Part shown: positions 1-61,793 of the stretch, in pieces
How positions within the stretch are numbered: position 1 is the first letter of the stretch
How the letters are laid out: every line of letters starts with the position of its first letter
DNA from: Pseudomonadota bacterium
GTDB taxonomy: Bacteria; Pseudomonadota; Gammaproteobacteria; Burkholderiales; JAJZUU01
NCBI GenBank assembly: GCA_021848325.1
Contig: JAJZUU010000006.1
Coordinates: 969-64,968, forward strand
Direction of reading: 5' to 3'
Length of the DNA stretch: 64,000 bases
Translations under genes and position numbers: made by a program
The notes under the pieces: generated by a model
What the model was told of the DNA's origin: nothing
The model's database searches: none
Seen by the model: only the letters and a program-made list of their open reading frames with translations

Positions 1-141
1 GGACTCAATCAGCGGATTCCATCAGGGACAGAGGCGATAAGCTTCACACAAAGTCCGGATGTATGGCTGCAATCTTTACCTACGCTCGATATCATCGATT
101 GAAAGCTTGGCAAAAAAGTGGGCGTCCATGTATGCCGGGGG

Positions 142-163
142 ATACTTACTGCTTAACAGGTCC
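142..163. mobile_element. Terminal inverted repeat (right end) of an element extending beyond the left window edge; same family as the 45-bp palindrome
   Basis: atacttactgcttaacaggtcc matches the 22-bp palindrome arm acacttaatgcttaacaggtcc at 20/22 and is followed by TAA, like the copy at 61360-61404. Confidence 0.7.
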
Positions 164-609
164 TAACCCCCGCGCACCAACAGTACCGGCTTCGGCGAGC
201 GGCGCGCCACGTCCTCGGCCACGCTGCCCATAAGCAGGTGATCCAGTCCGCGGCGGCCGTGGGTGCCGAGGACGATTAGGTCCGCTGGCCATGCCTCTGC
301 CTCTGCCACGATCGTGCCGGCGATGCGCCGGCCCGGGGATTGTATGTCGAGCAGCTTCGTTTCGGCTTCCACTCCCGACTTGCGTGCCACCGCCTGCGCG
401 TCTTCCAGGATGGCGTTCCCCGATTGGCGCAGGGCCTGCTGAATCGCTCCCACGTCCACGAATTCCAAGTCCAGCGGGTACATGAGCGCATCAATGACAT
501 GGACGATGCGCAACTTGGCCTGCTGACTCTCGGCGAGCTTGATCGCTTCCTGCAAGGCTAGGCCGGAGGTGTCGCTGCCGTCCACCGGGACTAATATCTG
601 CTTATACAT
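163..609 (-). CDS. Universal stress protein (UspA family)
   Basis: MYKQILVPVDGS N-terminus; ADLIVLGTHGRRGLDHLLMGSVAE...PVLLV C-terminal motif; start moved to ATG at 609. Confidence 0.95.
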   Translation of the reverse strand: MYKQILVPVDGSDTSGLALQEAIKLAESQQAKLRIVHVIDALMYPLDLEFVDVGAIQQALRQSGNAILEDAQAVARKSGVEAETKLLDIQSPGRRIAGTIVAEAEAWPADLIVLGTHGRRGLDHLLMGSVAEDVARRSPKPVLLVRGG

Positions 610-8718: not shown

Positions 8719-8961
8719 ATGGACATGCAAGGAAGGCCTTATGGAAAACTGGCGATCTCGGGCGTCATCTCGCTATCGCTTTACCTGCTCCTGTTCTTCT
8801 ACGAGGACCAGGTCATGGCGAACTACACCCGCACGGACGGATTTTATCCTGCGCTCCCGGTGGTGACGGCGCTGGCCTTCTCGTTTGCCCACGGCAGCTT
8901 TACTGCGTATTTCTGGGAAATGCTGGGTGTCAGGGGAAGACACGAAAAGGGGACAAACTAA
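8719..8961 (+). CDS. Small two-TM membrane protein preceding a TauE/SafE gene
   Basis: Strong RBS AAGGAGG; two hydrophobic segments; FSFAHGSFTAYFW motif; abuts the next gene. Confidence 0.75.
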   Translation: MDMQGRPYGKLAISGVISLSLYLLLFFYEDQVMANYTRTDGFYPALPVVTALAFSFAHGSFTAYFWEMLGVRGRHEKGTN

Positions 8962-10035
8962 ATGGAAAATGCCGCGATTGCGTTTGTTGACCTGGAGCTT
9001 CCCAACGTCGTCTTTCTCTTGCTGGTGGGGTTCGTCGGGGGGTTGGTGAGCGGGTTCATCGGTTCCGGCGGCGCCTTCGTGCTCACCCCTGCCATGATGA
9101 GCATGGGCGTGGCGGGGGTGGTGGCGGTGGCGAGCAACATGTGCCACAAGTTTCCCAAGGCCCTGGTGGGCGCGTTCAAGCGCTACAAGTACGGGCAGGT
9201 GGACGTCAAGCTCGGGTTGGTGATGGCCGTCTCGGCCTCGGTGGGGGTATGGGTGGGGGCGGATATCCAGCACGCCGTCAAGGCGAATTTCGGGGAGGCC
9301 GGGTCCAGCCTGTATGTGAGCGTGGCCTTCGCGCTGGTGCTGGCGATCGTGGGCGGAGTGGTGTTGCGCGATGCGCTGAGACTGCACCGCACGGGCAGGG
9401 CGCACGAGGATGAAGAAACGTCACGCCTGGCCAAGTGGGTTCAATCGGTCGAGATACCGGGTACCATGCTCCGCTTCAAGACCGCCGATATCCGGGTCTC
9501 GGCCCTGTTTACCCTGCCGGTGGGCTTCGCCACCGGCATGCTGGCTGCCACCATCGCGGTCGGCGGATTCATCGGGGTGCCGGGGATGATCTACGTGCTG
9601 GGCGTCCCCAGCCTGGTCGGCACGGCCACCGAGTTGGTCATCGCCTTTGTCATGGGGCTGGGCGGCACGGTCACATACGCCCTGCACGGCCTGGTGGACA
9701 TCCGGCTGGCCATGATCATCCTGGCGGGCTCCCTGTTCGGCATCCAACTCGGGGCCATCGGCACCACTTACGTCAAACCCTATATGGTCAAGGTGGTGAT
9801 GGCGTCGATCATGCTGATCGTGGCGGTGAGCCGGGGCCTGATTATCCCGGTCTATCTCACCCAACTCGGGTGGTTGGGGCTGAGCGCCAAAATGCTGGAA
9901 TTCTTGCGGGACACCAGCTTCATGTTCATGATCGCCGCCCTGCTGACGGGGGCGATCATCATCGTCGGCGCCATGATACGCGGCCACCGGGACCATAAGC
10001 TGAGTCTGGCCAAAGAGAAGGCGGCGATGCGCTAG
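8962..10035 (+). CDS. Sulfite exporter TauE/SafE family protein
   Basis: GFVGGLVSGFIGSGGAFVLTP and second repeat TGMLAATIAVGGFIGVP; multiple TM helices. Confidence 0.88.
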   Translation: MENAAIAFVDLELPNVVFLLLVGFVGGLVSGFIGSGGAFVLTPAMMSMGVAGVVAVASNMCHKFPKALVGAFKRYKYGQVDVKLGLVMAVSASVGVWVGADIQHAVKANFGEAGSSLYVSVAFALVLAIVGGVVLRDALRLHRTGRAHEDEETSRLAKWVQSVEIPGTMLRFKTADIRVSALFTLPVGFATGMLAATIAVGGFIGVPGMIYVLGVPSLVGTATELVIAFVMGLGGTVTYALHGLVDIRLAMIILAGSLFGIQLGAIGTTYVKPYMVKVVMASIMLIVAVSRGLIIPVYLTQLGWLGLSAKMLEFLRDTSFMFMIAALLTGAIIIVGAMIRGHRDHKLSLAKEKAAMR

Positions 10036-10076
10036 CGCCTGCCCCGCGGGATGGCCAGGCCCCCGTATCTATTTTA

Positions 10077-10326
10077 GGAGCCTGCCGGACTTAGGACCTG
10101 TTAAGCATTAAGTGTAACACTTAATGCTTAACAGGTCCTTAAAGGAAATCGGCTGCAAATCCGCCTGACCGGTCCATATTTCGCCGCTTTTTTGGCCAAT
10201 AGAACGACTATATGACCTGCAAAATCGACAAAATCTGTCCTCGGCCAGCCGAATTTTGCGAGCAGCCGCTACGCGGCTTGCCTGCCTGACCCGCTTCGCT
10301 TCGATTCTTCAAGCCCGACAGGCTCC
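10077..10326 (+). mobile_element. MITE copy 1 (250 bp) carrying two internal insertions
   Basis: Ends ggagcctgccggactt / aagcccgacaggctcc, flanked by TA; near-identical to 12540-12701 apart from 48-bp, 39-bp and 1-bp additions and a few substitutions. Confidence 0.9.
10094..10138. mobile_element. 45-bp perfect palindromic mini-element, copy A, nested in the MITE
   Basis: ggacctgttaagcattaagtgt-a-acacttaatgcttaacaggtcc; TTA duplicated at 10091-93 and 10139-41; MITE copy 2 has a single TTA at this site. Confidence 0.92.
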
Positions 10327-10360
10327 TAGCCCCAGAGGGCTCCACGAAAGGGACCGATGC

Positions 10361-12415
10361 ATGGTGGAACTCATCCACCAATTGATCGCCTGGATCGGCA
10401 GCCACCCGCATGCGGCCGGCGTGATCGTAGCCCTGGTGGCGTGCGCAGAGTCGTTGGCGTTTGTCGGGCTGATCGTTCCTGGGGTGGCAATGATGCTCGG
10501 TGCCGGGGCGCTGGTGGGGGCCGGCGTTATGGCATTCTGGAGTACCCTCGCCTGGGCCGTGGCCGGTGCGGTGATCGGTGATGGCGTCAGCTACTGGCTC
10601 GGCCGCCATTACCGGAACGGGCTGCGCCGCCTGCGGCCGTTGCAGGCTCACCCGGAACTGCTGGCGCGCGGCGAGGCGTTCTTCCACCGCCACGGCGGCA
10701 AGAGTATCCTGTTGGCCCGTTTCGTCGGCCCCGTGCGACCGGTGGTCCCCGTCATCGCCGGGATGCTGGGCATGGCGCCCACTCGGTTCTATGTCTACAA
10801 CCTGCTCTCGGCGCTGGTATGGGCACCGGCCCACCTGCTTCCCGGAATGGCCTTTGGCGCCTCGCTGGCGCTTGCCGGTCGGGTCGCCGCGCGGCTGGCG
10901 TTTCTGTTGAGCATGCTGTCGGTCTCTGGATGGATGCTGGTCTGGTTGGTTCGTGCAAGTTACCGCCGGCTGCAGCCGCATGCTGCCCAATGGGCGAGGG
11001 GAGCCATGCTCTGGGGGCGAACCCATGGCCGCCTGGCGTGGCTGGTCGCGGACCTGGTCGATCCGGCGCGGCCGGTATCGCGGGCATTGTTTGTCTGGCT
11101 GGTGCTGTTGATTGCCGGGAGCTGGCTGTTTTTCGGCGTTCTGGAGGATGTGCTGAGCGTTGACCCGCTGGTGCAGGCGGGCCAGTCGTTTTATCACCTG
11201 TTGCAGCAGTTGCGCACGCCCCCGGGTGATCGGATCATGGTCGTCCTGACCGAACTGGGCGATGCGGCCGTCGCGATTCCGCTCGTAGCCGCGGCCCTCG
11301 CCTGGCTGTTATGGCGGCGCGCCTGGCGAGACGCGCTATATTGGTTGGCCGCCGTCGGCTTCGGGGCGCTGGCGGTGGCGGCCGTCAAGCTGGCATTGCA
11401 GGTGCCGCGACCGGTCGAACTCTATTCCGGACTGGTCGCGTACAGCTTTCCGAGCGGTCATGCGGCCATGAGCACGGTCATCTACGGCTTTCTGGCCGTG
11501 CTCAGTGCACCTTCATTCGGCTTGCGCGCGCGCTGGATCCCGTATGCGGCGGCCACACTGCTGGTCGGCGGAATCGCGTTTTCCCGGCTCTACCTGGGCG
11601 CGCACTGGCTGGCCGATGTGGCCGCCGGGGTGGGACTGGGCACCGCCTGGGTCGCCGTGCTGGCGATCGCGCGGGAACGCCACCGTCGAGCACCTGCGCA
11701 GCCGGAGGCCCGCGGACTGGCTACGGTTGCCGTGCTGGTGTTCCTTGGCGCCGGCATCTGGCATGTTCACATCCGGCTACAGCCGGACCTTGAGCGCTAC
11801 GCGGTGCGCCATCCCGTTCTGGAGATGAGCGCGCAGCAATGGTGGGAGAGGGGCTGGCGGAAGTTGCCCGCCTACCGGCTGGACCTGGAGGGCGAACAGA
11901 AGCAACCGCTGAATGTTCAATGGGCGGGCGAGTTGCCACCCTTGCGGAAGTATCTCCTGTCCGAAGGCTGGCGTGAAGCGCCTGCGCTCACCCCGCGCAC
12001 CGCACTGCGTTGGCTGCTCCCCAACCCGTCGCTCGATCAACTGCCGCTGTTGCCGCAACTCCACGACGGCCAATACGAGTCGTTACTCCTGGTCCGCACC
12101 GGGGAGCCGGCGACGCATCCCGGCAATCAGATCGTCCTGCGTCTTTGGCCGACCAACGTGAAGCTGCAGCCCGGCAATGCACCCGTCTGGGTTGGCACCA
12201 TCGATCGGCAACGCATCCGGCATCTGCCGCTCGTCAGCTTTCCTCGGTCCGCCGGTGGCTACGACGAGGCAGTCTTGGCCTTACGGTCGATGTTGAAGGG
12301 TGCGAGGGGGAGGGTGGTGCAACGTCTGGCTCGGGTAGGTGATGAAGATATGCAATGGGGAAGCAACGTCCTGTTGGCGACCAGCGAGCGGAACGGGGCG
12401 AGTCCGGCAAAGTGA
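10361..12415 (+). CDS. DedA (VTT) + PAP2 phosphatase + LssY-like C-terminal domain membrane protein
   Basis: DedA motifs AESLAFVGLIVPG and LARFVGPVR; PAP2 motifs KLALQVPRP, SFPSGH, SRLYLGAHWLAD; C-terminal QPLNVQW; start moved to ATG 10361. Confidence 0.9.
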   Translation: MVELIHQLIAWIGSHPHAAGVIVALVACAESLAFVGLIVPGVAMMLGAGALVGAGVMAFWSTLAWAVAGAVIGDGVSYWLGRHYRNGLRRLRPLQAHPELLARGEAFFHRHGGKSILLARFVGPVRPVVPVIAGMLGMAPTRFYVYNLLSALVWAPAHLLPGMAFGASLALAGRVAARLAFLLSMLSVSGWMLVWLVRASYRRLQPHAAQWARGAMLWGRTHGRLAWLVADLVDPARPVSRALFVWLVLLIAGSWLFFGVLEDVLSVDPLVQAGQSFYHLLQQLRTPPGDRIMVVLTELGDAAVAIPLVAAALAWLLWRRAWRDALYWLAAVGFGALAVAAVKLALQVPRPVELYSGLVAYSFPSGHAAMSTVIYGFLAVLSAPSFGLRARWIPYAAATLLVGGIAFSRLYLGAHWLADVAAGVGLGTAWVAVLAIARERHRRAPAQPEARGLATVAVLVFLGAGIWHVHIRLQPDLERYAVRHPVLEMSAQQWWERGWRKLPAYRLDLEGEQKQPLNVQWAGELPPLRKYLLSEGWREAPALTPRTALRWLLPNPSLDQLPLLPQLHDGQYESLLLVRTGEPATHPGNQIVLRLWPTNVKLQPGNAPVWVGTIDRQRIRHLPLVSFPRSAGGYDEAVLALRSMLKGARGRVVQRLARVGDEDMQWGSNVLLATSERNGASPAK

Positions 12416-12539
12416 TTGCGCGAGAAAAAGCTGCTTCGTTTGGCGACACCGCCGGCGCGATGATGCCCGGCTAGCTCGACCGAAAGCCGCGCGGGCGGCG
12501 CGCCAGCCGCGTTCCCTTGCGAGAAGGACCGGACTCCTA

Positions 12540-12701
12540 GGAGCCTGTCGGACTTAAAGGAAATCGGCTGCAAATCCACCTGACCGGTCCATATTTCGCC
12601 GCTTTTTTGGTCAATAGAACGACTATTGACCTGCAAAATCGACAAAATCTGTCCTCGGCCAGCCGAATTTTCGCTTCGATTCTTCAAGTCCGACAGGCTC
12701 C
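12540..12701 (+). mobile_element. MITE copy 2 (162 bp, no insertions)
   Basis: Perfect 16-bp TIRs ggagcctgtcggactt / aagtccgacaggctcc; TA on both sides; internal hairpin gtcaatag-aacga-ctattgac. Confidence 0.92.
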
Positions 12702-14506
12702 TAGCGCGTCTCGCCGTTGGGCAGGCTGGCGTTGCATTCTCTGAAGATCCGCGCCTCGCAGGTGCGGCAGATTTCCGTGTCCAGCCTGGGGTAGATATTC
12801 TCGATCGGACGCGTCTTGGCGGGAAAGATGTTTTCGTCGCCGATATCCAGGATAAGCCTGTCTTTGCGCAACAGACCGTACACCCCATCCTTCATGCGGT
12901 AGAAGTACAGCCCGCCGCCGATCTTCTTGCGCCGCTTGGCTTCCTGGGCCAGCATCTCGGCGCCGGCAATGTCCACGAAGTTGATGCCGCTGGCCAGGAT
13001 CACCACGTGTTTGGCCTGGGGGTTGACCTCGTCGATTTCCTGCAGGGACAACTGCACGTGGTTGACGGCGCCGAAGAAGATGGAGCCGTTGATGCGCACT
13101 ATTCTTACCTGCGGGCATTCCGGCCGGTTCTCGGCCGGGATGTAATGGTAGCTGTCGGGTTCGGGATCCGGCACCATGGCGCTGATGGCCGGGCGGGAGG
13201 TGCGGTACAGGTACAACACCAGGGACAGGATGATGCCGAAGAAGATGCCCTTTTCCAGGTCCACCAGGGTGCCTATCAGGGTCACTAGGAGCACCACCGT
13301 TTCGGCGCGGCTGGTCCTGAAGATGGAGCCGATGTGGTGGAAGTCGATCAGGCCGTAGGCCACCAGGAACAGGATGCCGGCCATGGCCGCGGTGGGCAGA
13401 TAGGCGGCGAGGGGCGCCACCAGCAGCAGGATCAGCACCAGGAAGACGGACGCGAACACCGCGGCCAGCGGGGTGCGCGCGCCGGAGGTGTAGTTCACGC
13501 CGCTGCGGTTGAACGAGCCGCTGGAGGCGTAGCCGGAGAAAAAGCTGCCCAGGATGTTGGACATCCCTTGGCCGATGAACTCCTGGTTGCCGTCAATGCG
13601 CTGCTCGGAGCGCACGGCGATGGCCCGCGAGATGGACACCGCCTCGGTCAGTGCCAACAGGGTCACCACCAGGGCGGGGAACACGGTGTGCTTGATGGAG
13701 GCCAGCGAGAAGTCGGGATGGGAAAGCGGCGGCAGCCCGGACGGCAGCGCCCCTACCGCGCCGATATGGCTGGTGTCGATGCCCACCGCCGCGTTGACGA
13801 TAACGGCGACGATACTGCCGATGATCATGGCGGCGATCATGTAGGGGAACTTCGGTAAGAAACGCTTGACGAAAATACCCGAGATCAGGGTGATTACCCC
13901 TACCGTGGTGACATAGGGATTGATGTCGCCGAACTGGGCGAACACCTGATGGATCACCTCATGGAAAGGGGTGCCGCGGGGAATGCTGATGCCGAAGAAG
14001 TGCTTGATCTGGCTCGATGCGATCAGCACCGCGGCACCGGCGGTGAAGCCGATCACCACGGTATGGGATATGAAATTCACCAGCGCGCCCATGCGCGCCA
14101 GCCCCAGGATCAGCTCGAAAACCCCGGTGAGGAAGGTGAGGGTGAGCACCATGCTGATGAACTGCGGGGAACCCGGCTCCGCGAACGGACTCACCGAGGC
14201 GAATACCGCGATGGAGATGGCGGTGGTCGGCCCGGACACCAAGTGCCAGCTGGAGCCGAATAGAGCGGCGATGACGGCGGGCACCATGGCCGCGTACAGA
14301 CCATACTCGGGTGGCATGCCGGCGATGGTGGCGAAGGCGACTGCTTGGGGCAACACGATCATGGCGCCGGTTAAGCCCGCCATCAGGTCGGCGCGGCCGC
14401 TTTCCCTGGTGACCATGGGCGCCCAGCGCAGGAACGGAAATACCTTATAAAGCCAGACGTTACAAGCGAGGATGTCTTTCAATGCGGCGTTCCGATCTGT
14501 TCTCAA
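12701..14506 (-). CDS. SulP/SLC26 inorganic anion transporter with STAS domain
   Basis: DLMAGLTGAMIVLPQAVAFA, GLYAA, NQEFIGQG, SFNRS; C-terminal STAS (INFVDIAG); start codon uncertain. Confidence 0.93.
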   Translation of the reverse strand: MRTDRNAALKDILACNVWLYKVFPFLRWAPMVTRESGRADLMAGLTGAMIVLPQAVAFATIAGMPPEYGLYAAMVPAVIAALFGSSWHLVSGPTTAISIAVFASVSPFAEPGSPQFISMVLTLTFLTGVFELILGLARMGALVNFISHTVVIGFTAGAAVLIASSQIKHFFGISIPRGTPFHEVIHQVFAQFGDINPYVTTVGVITLISGIFVKRFLPKFPYMIAAMIIGSIVAVIVNAAVGIDTSHIGAVGALPSGLPPLSHPDFSLASIKHTVFPALVVTLLALTEAVSISRAIAVRSEQRIDGNQEFIGQGMSNILGSFFSGYASSGSFNRSGVNYTSGARTPLAAVFASVFLVLILLLVAPLAAYLPTAAMAGILFLVAYGLIDFHHIGSIFRTSRAETVVLLVTLIGTLVDLEKGIFFGIILSLVLYLYRTSRPAISAMVPDPEPDSYHYIPAENRPECPQVRIVRINGSIFFGAVNHVQLSLQEIDEVNPQAKHVVILASGINFVDIAGAEMLAQEAKRRKKIGGGLYFYRMKDGVYGLLRKDRLILDIGDENIFPAKTRPIENIYPRLDTEICRTCEARIFRECNASLPNGETR

Positions 14507-19194: not shown

Positions 19195-20831
19195 GGTTCC
19201 TTTTCCTCCGCCACGGGCCGGCGCGCCATGTCCCTTACCTGCGCCCGTCTCGCCTCGATTTTCGCGATCTCCTCCAGGGCCTCCGGGGGCAGGTTGTCGA
19301 CGTTCCTGGGGGCCGCCGCCGCTTTCTTCGCCTTGGCCCGCTCCACGGCGGCCAGGATCGCCGCCTTCTTGGCGTCGGCCTCGCCTGGGGCGGGCGCCGC
19401 CTTGGCGGCGGTCTTCTGCGCAAGCTTCTCCGCCCGCTCCCGCTTTTCCCGCTCCAGCCGGAGTTGTCTGAATTCGTGCCGCTCCCGTGCCAGGTCGGCG
19501 GCCTTCTTTTCCTTTTCCCGCGCCCAGATCTCGCTCTTGGCGAAGCGGTAATACTGCACCAGGGGGATATGGCTGGGGCAGACATAGCTGCAGCAGCCGC
19601 ACTCGATGCAGTCGAACAGGGCGTATTCCTGCGCCTTGCCGAAGTTCTTGGCGCGGGCGAACCAGTACAGCTCCTGGGGCTGGAGTTCGACCGGGCAGGC
19701 CCGGGCGCAGCGGCCGCAACGGATGCACGGCATGGGCGCGGGCGCGGGCTTGAACAGGGCCGGCGAGGCGGCGATGACGCAGTTGCACGCCTTCACCAGG
19801 GGTACCTCGGGCGATGGCAAATCGAATCCCATCATCGGGCCGCCCATGACCAGCCGGTCCGTGCCCTCCCTGGCACCGCCCGCGGCCGCCACCAGATCGC
19901 TCACCGGAGTGCCGATCAGGGCCTCGAAGTTCCGGGGCTCCCGCACGTTGCCGGTCACCGTCACGACGCGCGAGACCACCGGTTCCCCGTGATCGACGGC
20001 GCGGTGCACGGTGTAGGCGGTGGCCACGTTGAAGCAGGCCACCCCCACGTCGGTGGAGCGTCCGCTGGAGGGCGCCTCCTTGCCGGTCAACACCTTGATC
20101 AACTGTTTGGCGCCGCCGGCCGGATAGAGGGTGGGCACCGCCACCACCTCGATCGGGAACGCGCTTTGGGCGCAGGCCTCGGCCATGGCGGCGATGGCCT
20201 CGGGTTTGTTGTCCTCGATTCCCACCAGCACTTCCTGGGAGCCCAGCATGAAGCGCATGACGGCGATGCCCGCCACGATCTGGGCGGCCCGCTCCCGCAT
20301 CAGGCGGTCGTCGCAGGTGATCCACGGCTCACATTCCGCGCCGTTCAGGATCAGGGTCGGGACCCTTTGCTGCGCCCCGGGGTTGAGCTTGATGAAAGTG
20401 GGGAACACCGCGCCGCCCAGCCCCACCACTCCGGCGTCCCGCAGCCGGTTGCGCAGGGTGCTGGCATCCAGTTCCCGGTAGTCGATCGGTTGGCGCTCGA
20501 TCCAGCGGTCTTCGCCGTCCGCCTCCACGGTGATGCACAAGTCGGGCAGCCCCGAAGGATGGGGAACCAGGTGCATGGCCACCGTACTGACGGTGCCGGA
20601 GGTGGGGGCGTGGACCGCCGCCGAGACATAGCCCTCCGCCTGGGCGATCAACTGCCCTTTCAGCACCCTGTCGCCGGGCTGGACCAGGGGTTTGGCGGGG
20701 TTGCCGATGTGCTGGTGCACCGGCACCACCAGGCGCGCGGGGAGCGGGGCCGGGACGATGGGGTGTCCACTGGACTCCTCCTTGTGCTGGGGCGGGTGCA
20801 CGCCGCCGTTGAAACGGTATAGTGGCCTCAT
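19191..20831 (-). CDS. rnfC: Rnf/Rsx complex subunit C
   Basis: [48 protein letters not shown]. Confidence 0.95.
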
Positions 20832-61342: not shown

Positions 61343-61359
61343 GCGTTTTAGGAGCCTAA

Positions 61360-61404
61360 GGACCTGTTAAGCATTAAGTGTTACACTTAATGCTTAACAG
61401 GTCC
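61360..61404. mobile_element. 45-bp perfect palindromic mini-element, copy B
   Basis: Same arms as 10094-10138 with central T (opposite orientation); TAA duplicated at 61357-59 and 61405-07. Confidence 0.92.
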
Positions 61405-61793
61405 TAAAACAGGCTGAAAATGTCGTTGACCACGTCGTTGGCCACGGCAAAGCCGGCGCCCATCCCGAGCCCGCTGGCCATGCTGCCCATGAAGCCGCCG
61501 CCGGGCCGCCCGGTCCAGCCCTGCGGCTGGACCGTGGGGTTGGGGTGGGTCTCCAACTGCGCTTCCAGGGTCTTGATATATTCCGCCATCTGGTTCACCA
61601 GCATGGCCGTGGCCTGGGTCTGGCTTTGCACGGACATGGCGATTTCCCGGAGGTCCATCGCCCATTCCCTGCCGGCGGTTTCGTCCGGGGCGGCGGCCCG
61701 CAGTTTCTGGGCTAGGGCCTGCATGCCCTGGACCATGGTTTGGGATTGCTGCTGCACCTGCATCACCTGGTTTTCCGCACTGGCGTAGTCCAT
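61404..61793 (-). CDS. Hypothetical Gln-rich helical protein with Gly-rich hydrophobic C-terminus
   Basis: AAGGAG RBS; ends GGGFMGSMASGLGMGAGFAVANDVVNDIFSLF. Confidence 0.8.
   Translation of the reverse strand: MDYASAENQVMQVQQQSQTMVQGMQALAQKLRAAAPDETAGREWAMDLREIAMSVQSQTQATAMLVNQMAEYIKTLEAQLETHPNPTVQPQGWTGRPGGGFMGSMASGLGMGAGFAVANDVVNDIFSLF

Follow-up and report, generated by a model that had tools for sequence, protein, structure and literature searches.

A 45-bp palindrome in a bacterial genome as the probable stump of a 266-bp MITE

A perfect 45-bp palindrome in a draft bacterial genome is probably what is left of a MITE of about 266 bp without coding capacity, a stump formed by a recurrent collapse of the nearly-precise-excision type. 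We put the probability of this reading at about 0.7, and we read the stump as a scar and not as a working unit. The palindrome lies in a window of 64,000 nucleotides (the whole stretch of DNA that was analysed; G000:C96:969-64968), which belongs to a 3.0-Mb draft genome (G000) of 119 contigs with 64% G+C, a shortest contig of 3057 bp and a completeness of 94%. The first-pass annotation of the window had treated the palindrome as a minimal transposon, and had offered a second reading, in which it may be a collapse product that a larger element leaves behind time and again. Our analysis sides with the second reading: copies of 152-266 bp share the ends of the palindrome, and its junction falls in a self-complementary 9-mer. 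The same reading is backed by the occurrence of the 45-bp form in two TIR subfamilies and by one site that holds a long copy in one genome (G401) and a short copy in another (G291).

The palindrome and its surroundings in the window

The palindrome at 10094-10138 is composed of two 22-nt arms, GGACCTGTTAAGCATTAAGTGT and ACACTTAATGCTTAACAGGTCC, around a central A, and TTA is present on both sides (Table 1); in these respects the sequence readout agreed with the first-pass annotation. The 22-nt arm (with up to 3 mismatches) had five matches within the window, compared with none in each of 100 dinucleotide shuffles. Folded as a single-stranded DNA hairpin, the 45-mer reached -22.4 kcal/mol (z -13), and none of 200 shuffles was equally good. 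An Rfam search of window positions 9000-13500 gave no match at E up to 0.1.

Table 1 Positions of the palindromes and related features in the window, and of the short family forms in genome G000
Feature	Position	Strand	Basis or remark
Single family arm (2 mismatches), followed by TAA; inner side abuts an IS110-family element	142..163	-	arm search
Host MITE copy, GGAGCCTG...CAGGCTCC, TA/TA flanks; 250 bp = 202 bp + 48-bp insertion	10077..10326	.	only 250-bp pair among 87
Left 3-bp target duplication (TTA)	10091..10093	.	single TTA in empty allele
45-bp palindrome (putative stump): two 22-nt outer TIR segments + central A	10094..10138	.	sequence, ssDNA hairpin
Right copy of target duplication (TTA)	10139..10141	.	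sequence
Second host MITE copy, 162-bp form, carries the empty site	12540..12701	.	sequence, genome pairs
Unoccupied TTA target, reads ggacTTAaagg	12554..12556	.	empty allele
Left target duplication (TAA) of second 45-mer	61357..61359	.	sequence
Second 45-bp palindrome (putative stump), centre T	61360..61404	.	reverse complement of first 45-mer
Right target duplication (TAA) of second 45-mer	61405..61407	.	sequence
Nine 45-mers in G000	C7:33617, C12:5755, C20:35247, C49:19469, C70:15687, C80:27543, C82:5296, C96:11062, C96:62328		arm readout, G000
Other short forms in G000	56-mer C40; 25-mer C2; 22-mer C70:45341		one each

The palindrome was also said to be nested in another MITE whose second copy keeps the TTA empty, and this was borne out (12554-12556). 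The host MITE has the TIR GGAGCCTGTCGGACTT and CTA...TAG flanks, and G000 contains 222 matches to this TIR and 87 paired copies, among them 43 of 162 bp, 38 of 201 bp, three of 202 bp and one of 250 bp. The context of the empty target, ACTTAAAGG, is present in 100 of the 222 TIR matches. Only two of the paired copies are mini forms (50 and 55 bp), a contrast to the many short forms in the family of the 45-mer that would speak for the collapse reading. The summed contig depth of the host MITE in metagenome runs ranged, depending on the run, from hundreds to more than 10,000, against about 3-40 for the flanks. The host MITE and the MITE family of the 45-mer have been nested or recombined repeatedly: a 216-bp family copy (G000:C45:4112-4327) includes a host-MITE fragment, and a truncated family end at about 19330-19431 of G000:C68 adjoins a palindromic host-MITE-like mini form of about 60 bp.

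An identical second copy with a TAA duplication had been reported from the same window. The TAA is indeed present on both sides, and the identity holds except at the centre, which is T and not A. Since 61360-61404 is the exact reverse complement of 10094-10138, the two are one element in opposite orientations. Both are perfect and identical, as expected of recent copies of each other; this identity is not diagnostic, because both equal the family consensus.

A fifth arm in the window, on the minus strand near its start, was absent from the first-pass annotation. The element next to it (Transposase_20, E 6e-28; window 1-166, G000:C96:1-1134) runs off the window start, and because it abuts the inner side of the arm, its insertion point appears to have been the centre of a stump or of a MITE end, or a position close to it. 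The terminal 29 nt of this IS110-family element are single copy in the G000 assembly.

As an independent check of the site we used Logan contigs from other public runs, which are contigs and not long reads. One contig (run X3) spans 8905-10141 and hence the whole palindrome, another (X1) reaches 10120, and a third (X5, from a different study) reaches 10117, with the central A included; none of them differs from the window. In total, contigs reaching 10094-10141 show the 45-mer in three of the four runs compared, and no long copy at the window site itself was seen in the contigs of these runs. In the fourth run (X8, from a third study), a single contig with a depth of 2.3 is without 10090-10325. 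It joins 10089 to 10326 over a 2-nt overlap, so that nothing of the 45-mer and only about 14 nt of the host MITE remain. This junction is a different, larger deletion at the 45-mer locus in another population. Because it shows no clean empty site and no long allele either, the contig was rejected as evidence on the mechanism.

The putative parent family and its short forms

The 45-mer is no stand-alone system but belongs to a MITE family with a 3-bp TWA duplication. Each arm corresponds to the outermost 22 nt of the family's TIR of about 30 nt (GGACCTGTTAAGCATTAAGTGTTACACGCG); the canonical form of the family is 266 bp long and has two internal hairpin modules and no ORF. In the G000 genome we found 52 arm matches (with up to 4 mismatches). 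They include five complete long copies (152, 168, 168, 216 and 266 bp) and one composite, in addition to the short forms listed in Table 1. Twelve arms are situated no more than 250 nt from a contig end and represent long copies at which the assembly broke; the remaining single arms are truncated or interrupted by other insertion sequences (ISs). Ends of 22-30 nt are common to all copies, in elements from 22 to 266 bp, and the scars make up about one third of the recognisable family copies in G000.

The genome-wide count that had been proposed in the first-pass annotation thus gave nine 45-mers, and target duplications accompany all nine. It had been envisaged there that other copies might lack duplications and empty sites; the duplications were present in all nine, and empty sites were found for copies in G291. 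The flanks of the 45-mers, TTA/TTA or TAA/TAA, match in 9 of 9, and therefore both ends were true transposon ends at insertion. A simple fold-back duplication of one end was ruled out, as the flanks are direct and not mirrored (it would give TTA...TAA). In the long copies and the other short forms the target duplication mostly matches as well, with exceptions on C24 (ggt/taa), C40 (taa/tat) and C45 (tta/ttg). Empty sites were found both paralogously, in the host MITE, and orthologously, in related species of G291. When the flanks of 17 elements were searched for in duplicate or haplotype contigs, only host-MITE repeats came up. Two of the 45-mers in G000 (C49:19469-19513 and C70:15687-15731) have one intact arm and another with 4-6 changes, mostly G-to-A, which is an arm- or strand-asymmetric decay of the palindrome.

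Outside G000, none of 40 genomes of the same order, none of which was from the family of G000, carried the 45-mer. Among 401 genomes sampled from the order, two had the arm, namely G000 and G291, which belongs to another family; in the genus of G291 it was present in 4 of the 18 species. The 22-nt arm was also found at one locus in a collection of genome contigs (a Hydrogenophilales MAG record) and at nine loci in metagenome contigs, including one copy of 266 bp, one palindromic version of 54 bp and one decayed copy of 43 or 44 bp with TAA/TAA. No locus from these collections had flanks matching G000 over at least 300 nt, so there were no orthologous sites among them. A distant search of a plasmid collection with the 266-bp element gave only one 30-nt chance match.

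Two further TIR subfamilies are found in G291 and its relatives, the second with GGGCCTGTTAATGGATAAATGT and the third with GGACCTATTAAGCAWTAAGCGT. Copies of 266 bp and mini forms of 45, 46 and 54 bp also occur within the second subfamily, whose TIR differs from the G000 type at 6 mirrored positions. The second-subfamily 45-mer therefore cannot descend from a G000-type 45-mer, and the 45-bp architecture has arisen at least twice. Every mini form in G291 has its own arm sequence. A 407-bp family copy in G291 (L088 1501-1907; C31:14480-14886) has a third, small inverted-repeat element, with ends CTAGTAGTCAGTCAC..., inserted in its first internal module.

Empty sites in related species, which the first-pass annotation had suggested looking for, were found for some of the G291 mini forms. 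The 45-mer on C3 has a precise empty site in G405, and that on C25 has precise empty sites in G405 and G412. In the case of the 45-mer on C61, matches in G405, G124, G406, G404 and G402 are about 50 bp shorter (in loci that were left unaligned), which we take as an apparent empty site. These empty orthologous sites show insertion polymorphism; they do not reveal the inserted length. A decayed stump at an orthologous site is common to G291 and G405, and therefore stumps outlive speciation.

At one site the long form and a remnant were both recovered. A 266-bp copy in G401 (C1:517787-518052) and a 47-mer in G291 (C79:50788-50834) occupy one intergenic TAA; both read TCAGGTT-TAA-element-TAA-GTTAACG, with a T just before the duplication. 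Both carry the rare TIR variants A7/C20, and each is the sole such copy found in its genome. The site was recovered in 16 species and is empty in the other 14. By the flanks of the locus, G291 is nearest to G018, G412, G409 and G408 (about 90.5%) and G401 to G403 (89.5% on the left, 93.5% on the right), compared with 84% between G291 and G401. The two copies with their shared duplication are thus in species that are not sisters at the locus, and the nearest relatives of both are all empty, with CTGG or CTAG in place of the TTAA of the filled alleles. A single origin therefore needs lateral transfer of a short allele between lineages. From the shared site and variants, a single origin of the two elements is nevertheless likely but not proven, and we consider it much more likely than two independent insertions by a subfamily without another copy in either genome. 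Given a single origin, long-to-short at a fixed site is the only possible direction.

The family had been placed near IS5-family groups and PIF/Harbinger elements. The 3-bp TWA duplication stood, and the rest of this placement was without support, as no transposase sharing the ends was found; an origin from the IS5 family (IS1031/IS427-like) or of the PIF/Harbinger type would have that duplication as its one indication. A three-nucleotide insertion site is described as a common feature of the IS1031 group (PMC2516522). In G000, an assembly without contigs below about 3 kb, PF01609 gave 12 hits, PF13586 none and PF13359 one, and no hit was bounded by the TIR. Likewise, the TIR-flanked loci of 18 genomes of the genus of G291 included no DDE transposase between the same TIRs. 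The transposase with the same TIR that the first-pass annotation had proposed to look for was thus not found among the loci searched in both.

Three apparent IS ends beginning GGACCTGTTAA were considered as the partner IS and turned out to be other ISs inserted in the TTAA of an arm. Insertions of the GGGCACCTCT family in this motif are on C74 and at C47:28191, and the insertion at C47:1-891 is an IS with a DDE_5 transposase. The end of an insertion in an arm at C75:1-170 is similar to C14, which has a 481-aa DDE_Tnp_1 frame. C7:26945 was rejected as an IS end, being a solitary look-alike after an ORF. A family with GGGCACCTCTAA ends is situated in arms at TTAA motifs in four cases (C33:14486-14664, C47:28191, C64:95 and C74:393). 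Four different ISs, including the IS110-family element, target the AT-rich arms in this genome of 64% G+C.

The proposed collapse and its alternatives

Positions 19-27 of the TIR read GTGT(T/A)ACAC, which is a self-complementary 9-mer. Because the 9-mer is its own reverse complement, the two ends of an element share a direct repeat besides the inverted one. Read on the same strand, the left end gives GTGTTACAC and the right gives GTGTAACAC, which makes an 8-of-9 direct repeat. In a folded-back element, the two copies of the 9-mer would stand opposite one another in the stem, and a copy-choice slip from one to the other would delete everything between them. The predicted product is 18+9+18 = 45 bp with an untouched target duplication, and the side of the crossover would set whether the centre is T or A. 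Such a deletion would probably be made by the host replication machinery and not by a transposase, and both window copies would have collapsed at their present locations. Inverted repeats are described as stimulating copy-choice between short direct repeats, a process independent of transposase (d'Alencon et al., via PMC12524634).

In the short forms, the deletions end within short direct repeats that are part of the inverted ends, as in nearly precise excision. The junctions are in GTGTWACAC in the 45-mers, CGCGT in the 56-mer and TTAA in the 25-mer of G000, and elsewhere in CG in the metagenome 54-mer and GCGT in the G291 47-mer. The 25-mer could be derived from the 45-mer by a further slip at TTAA. 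Counting against the collapse is the distribution of these junctions: with nine products sharing one junction and three having others, one collapse followed by copying would also fit. A stump that keeps the outer 22 nt of both ends may still bind transposase.

Copying after one deletion is the essence of an alternative that we hold to be unlikely, namely that the 45-mer is an ordinary, extremely short MITE, made by an internal deletion that happened once or a few times and then copied in trans to TTA/TAA by the transposase of a resident IS. It would account for the perfect 3-bp duplications in 9 of 9 45-mers, the retention of the outer 22 nt of both ends, the identity of the two window copies and the precise empty sites in relatives for three G291 mini forms; in addition, Made1 is described as a recognised multi-copy MITE family, so that end-only elements exist (PMC1784062). 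However, the duplications and empty sites are equally expected from a long insertion followed by collapse, and one stump (in G291) is at the same site as a long copy (in G401). The arms of each G291 mini form are also different, and the 45-mers of G000 have no private substitution in common that is absent from the long copies: T13, G17 and A21 are also found on long ends. Tracing each 45-mer to a long parent by these three variants was rejected, because copies that are unrelated repeatedly show G-to-A changes at identical positions, and the sharing of variants may therefore be parallel mutation.

The arms of the 45-mers are, moreover, more diverged than those of long copies, with a mean of 0.94 mismatches to the consensus per 22 nt, compared with 0.22 for 32 full-TIR arms (one-sided Mann-Whitney p 0.02; this test is rough, as the arms are not independent and the 32 include two arms of the 56-mer). 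The search of G000 found no transposase with matching ends. Besides, the persistence length of DNA far exceeds 45 bp, and on general reasoning the ends of so short a duplex would be unable to meet in one synaptic complex. The pattern of arm decay and divergence fits passive relics, although some 45-mers may have been mobilised in trans, since the outer 22 nt of their two ends are retained.

It is very improbable that the 45-mer moves as a single-strand hairpin or an extruded cruciform. The single-stranded hairpin is very stable, as given above, and in subfamily II of the genus of G291 the arms are alike within an element (0.29 differences within, 1.43 between elements; permutation p 1e-4). However, this symmetry extends to the 266-bp copies, and it has a known cause other than transposition: part of it is subfamily structure, and the rest may be template switching in quasipalindromes, which is reported to homogenise the arms of inverted repeats (PMC7202029, PMC8604942). 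In the mini forms of G000 the arms are not homogenised (1.8 differences within against 2.07 between elements; permutation p 0.19), and two 45-mers have one decayed arm. The direct TTA/TTA is also unlike the TTA...TAA product of simple fold-back copying.

In several copies from G291 and G405 (L091, L094, L081, L096 and L098), both ends share a variant while the copies differ from each other: A14 is present at both ends of one copy, G23 at both ends of another, and C6 or G22 in both arms of mini forms. Such symmetric private variants were rejected as proof of hairpin copying, as a number of them mark subfamilies and the others may be accounted for by template switching. For example, A7/C20 (in the long copy of G401) and A14 (in several copies) were supposed to be private and proved to be subfamily markers. 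We therefore give very little credence to the 45-mer as a working minimal transposon with the arm identity in the genus of G291 as the trace of a fold-back intermediate. The minimal transposon of the first-pass annotation, moving as a hairpin in an undescribed system, found no positive support; in G000 the arms decay independently and diverge more than full-length ends.

Finally, an assembler that shortened a longer element to 45 bp, a danger raised in the first-pass annotation and conceivable in a family that breaks the assembly elsewhere (the 12 arms near contig ends), is practically out of the question, because independently built contigs (X3, X1 and X5) cross or enter the palindrome centre without differences; besides, the 45-bp form is present at nine loci in G000 and in another genome, and the central A at the window site stands where the full-length TIR has T.

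Relation to known elements and significance

The mechanism closest to the proposed formation of the 45-mer is the nearly precise excision of Tn10. In that process, the interior of the transposon is deleted between short direct repeats inside the long inverted ends, and a palindromic stump and the target duplication are left. The Tn10 remnant was reportedly described by Ross, Swan & Kleckner in 1979 and by Foster et al. in 1981. Common to both cases are the loss of the interior between repeats inside inverted ends, the short palindromic stump and the intact target duplication. In our case, however, the direct repeat is only an 8-of-9 match that comes from the self-complementary TIR core, the parent is a 266-bp MITE and not a 9-kb composite transposon, and the stumps form a natural population of multiple copies in multiple genomes and not a laboratory class of revertants.

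The closest look-alike of the 45-mer is human Made1 (MiHsmar1), an element that is almost only its two ends: it is described as a near-perfect palindrome with 6 bp between two 37-bp TIRs, which folds into a stable hairpin (PMC1784062). In contrast to the stumps, which have 45 bp, a 1-nt spacer and at most nine copies per genome, Made1 is an 80-bp, eukaryotic element that is derived from Tc1/mariner and has a TA duplication. The type I MITEs of bacteria (MITEAba12, Correia) resemble the family in their TIRs, target duplication, non-coding nature, multiple copies, insertion polymorphism and derivation by internal deletion. Unlike them, the 45-mer is at or below their lower size bound, stated as about 50 bp in a range up to about 600 bp (PMC6382973), and the search for a resident parent IS sharing its ends found none.

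REP and REPIN sequences (RAYT, Y1) are likewise short extragenic palindromes in many copies. According to the account in PMC3733652, REPs have no target duplication and many have a GTAG or CGTC tag at one end. The 45-mer differs in having a TWA duplication, no such tag, and arms that are MITE TIRs. In addition, no arm lies beside the two Y1_Tnp genes of G000, which are at C94:3485 and C71:251; of these two contigs, just C94 carries an arm, at C94:14560. In a limited search of the literature on the size limits and internal deletions of prokaryotic MITEs, we found no account of such stumps.

The stumps provide a natural record, spread over multiple genomes, of bacteria whittling down small transposons. 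The self-complementary core of the TIR would fix the break point, and the result would be a predictable 45-bp palindromic scar, with its target duplication intact, that outlasts speciation. Annotation pipelines commonly assume a MITE length of at least 50 bp and will miss such scars, or may call them REP-like repeats or regulatory hairpins. Should the 45-mers turn out to move, which we consider improbable, DDE-type transposition would have a new lower size limit. In the genome itself, at least four other insertion sequences have used the scars, which are AT-rich and contain TTAA, as landing pads.
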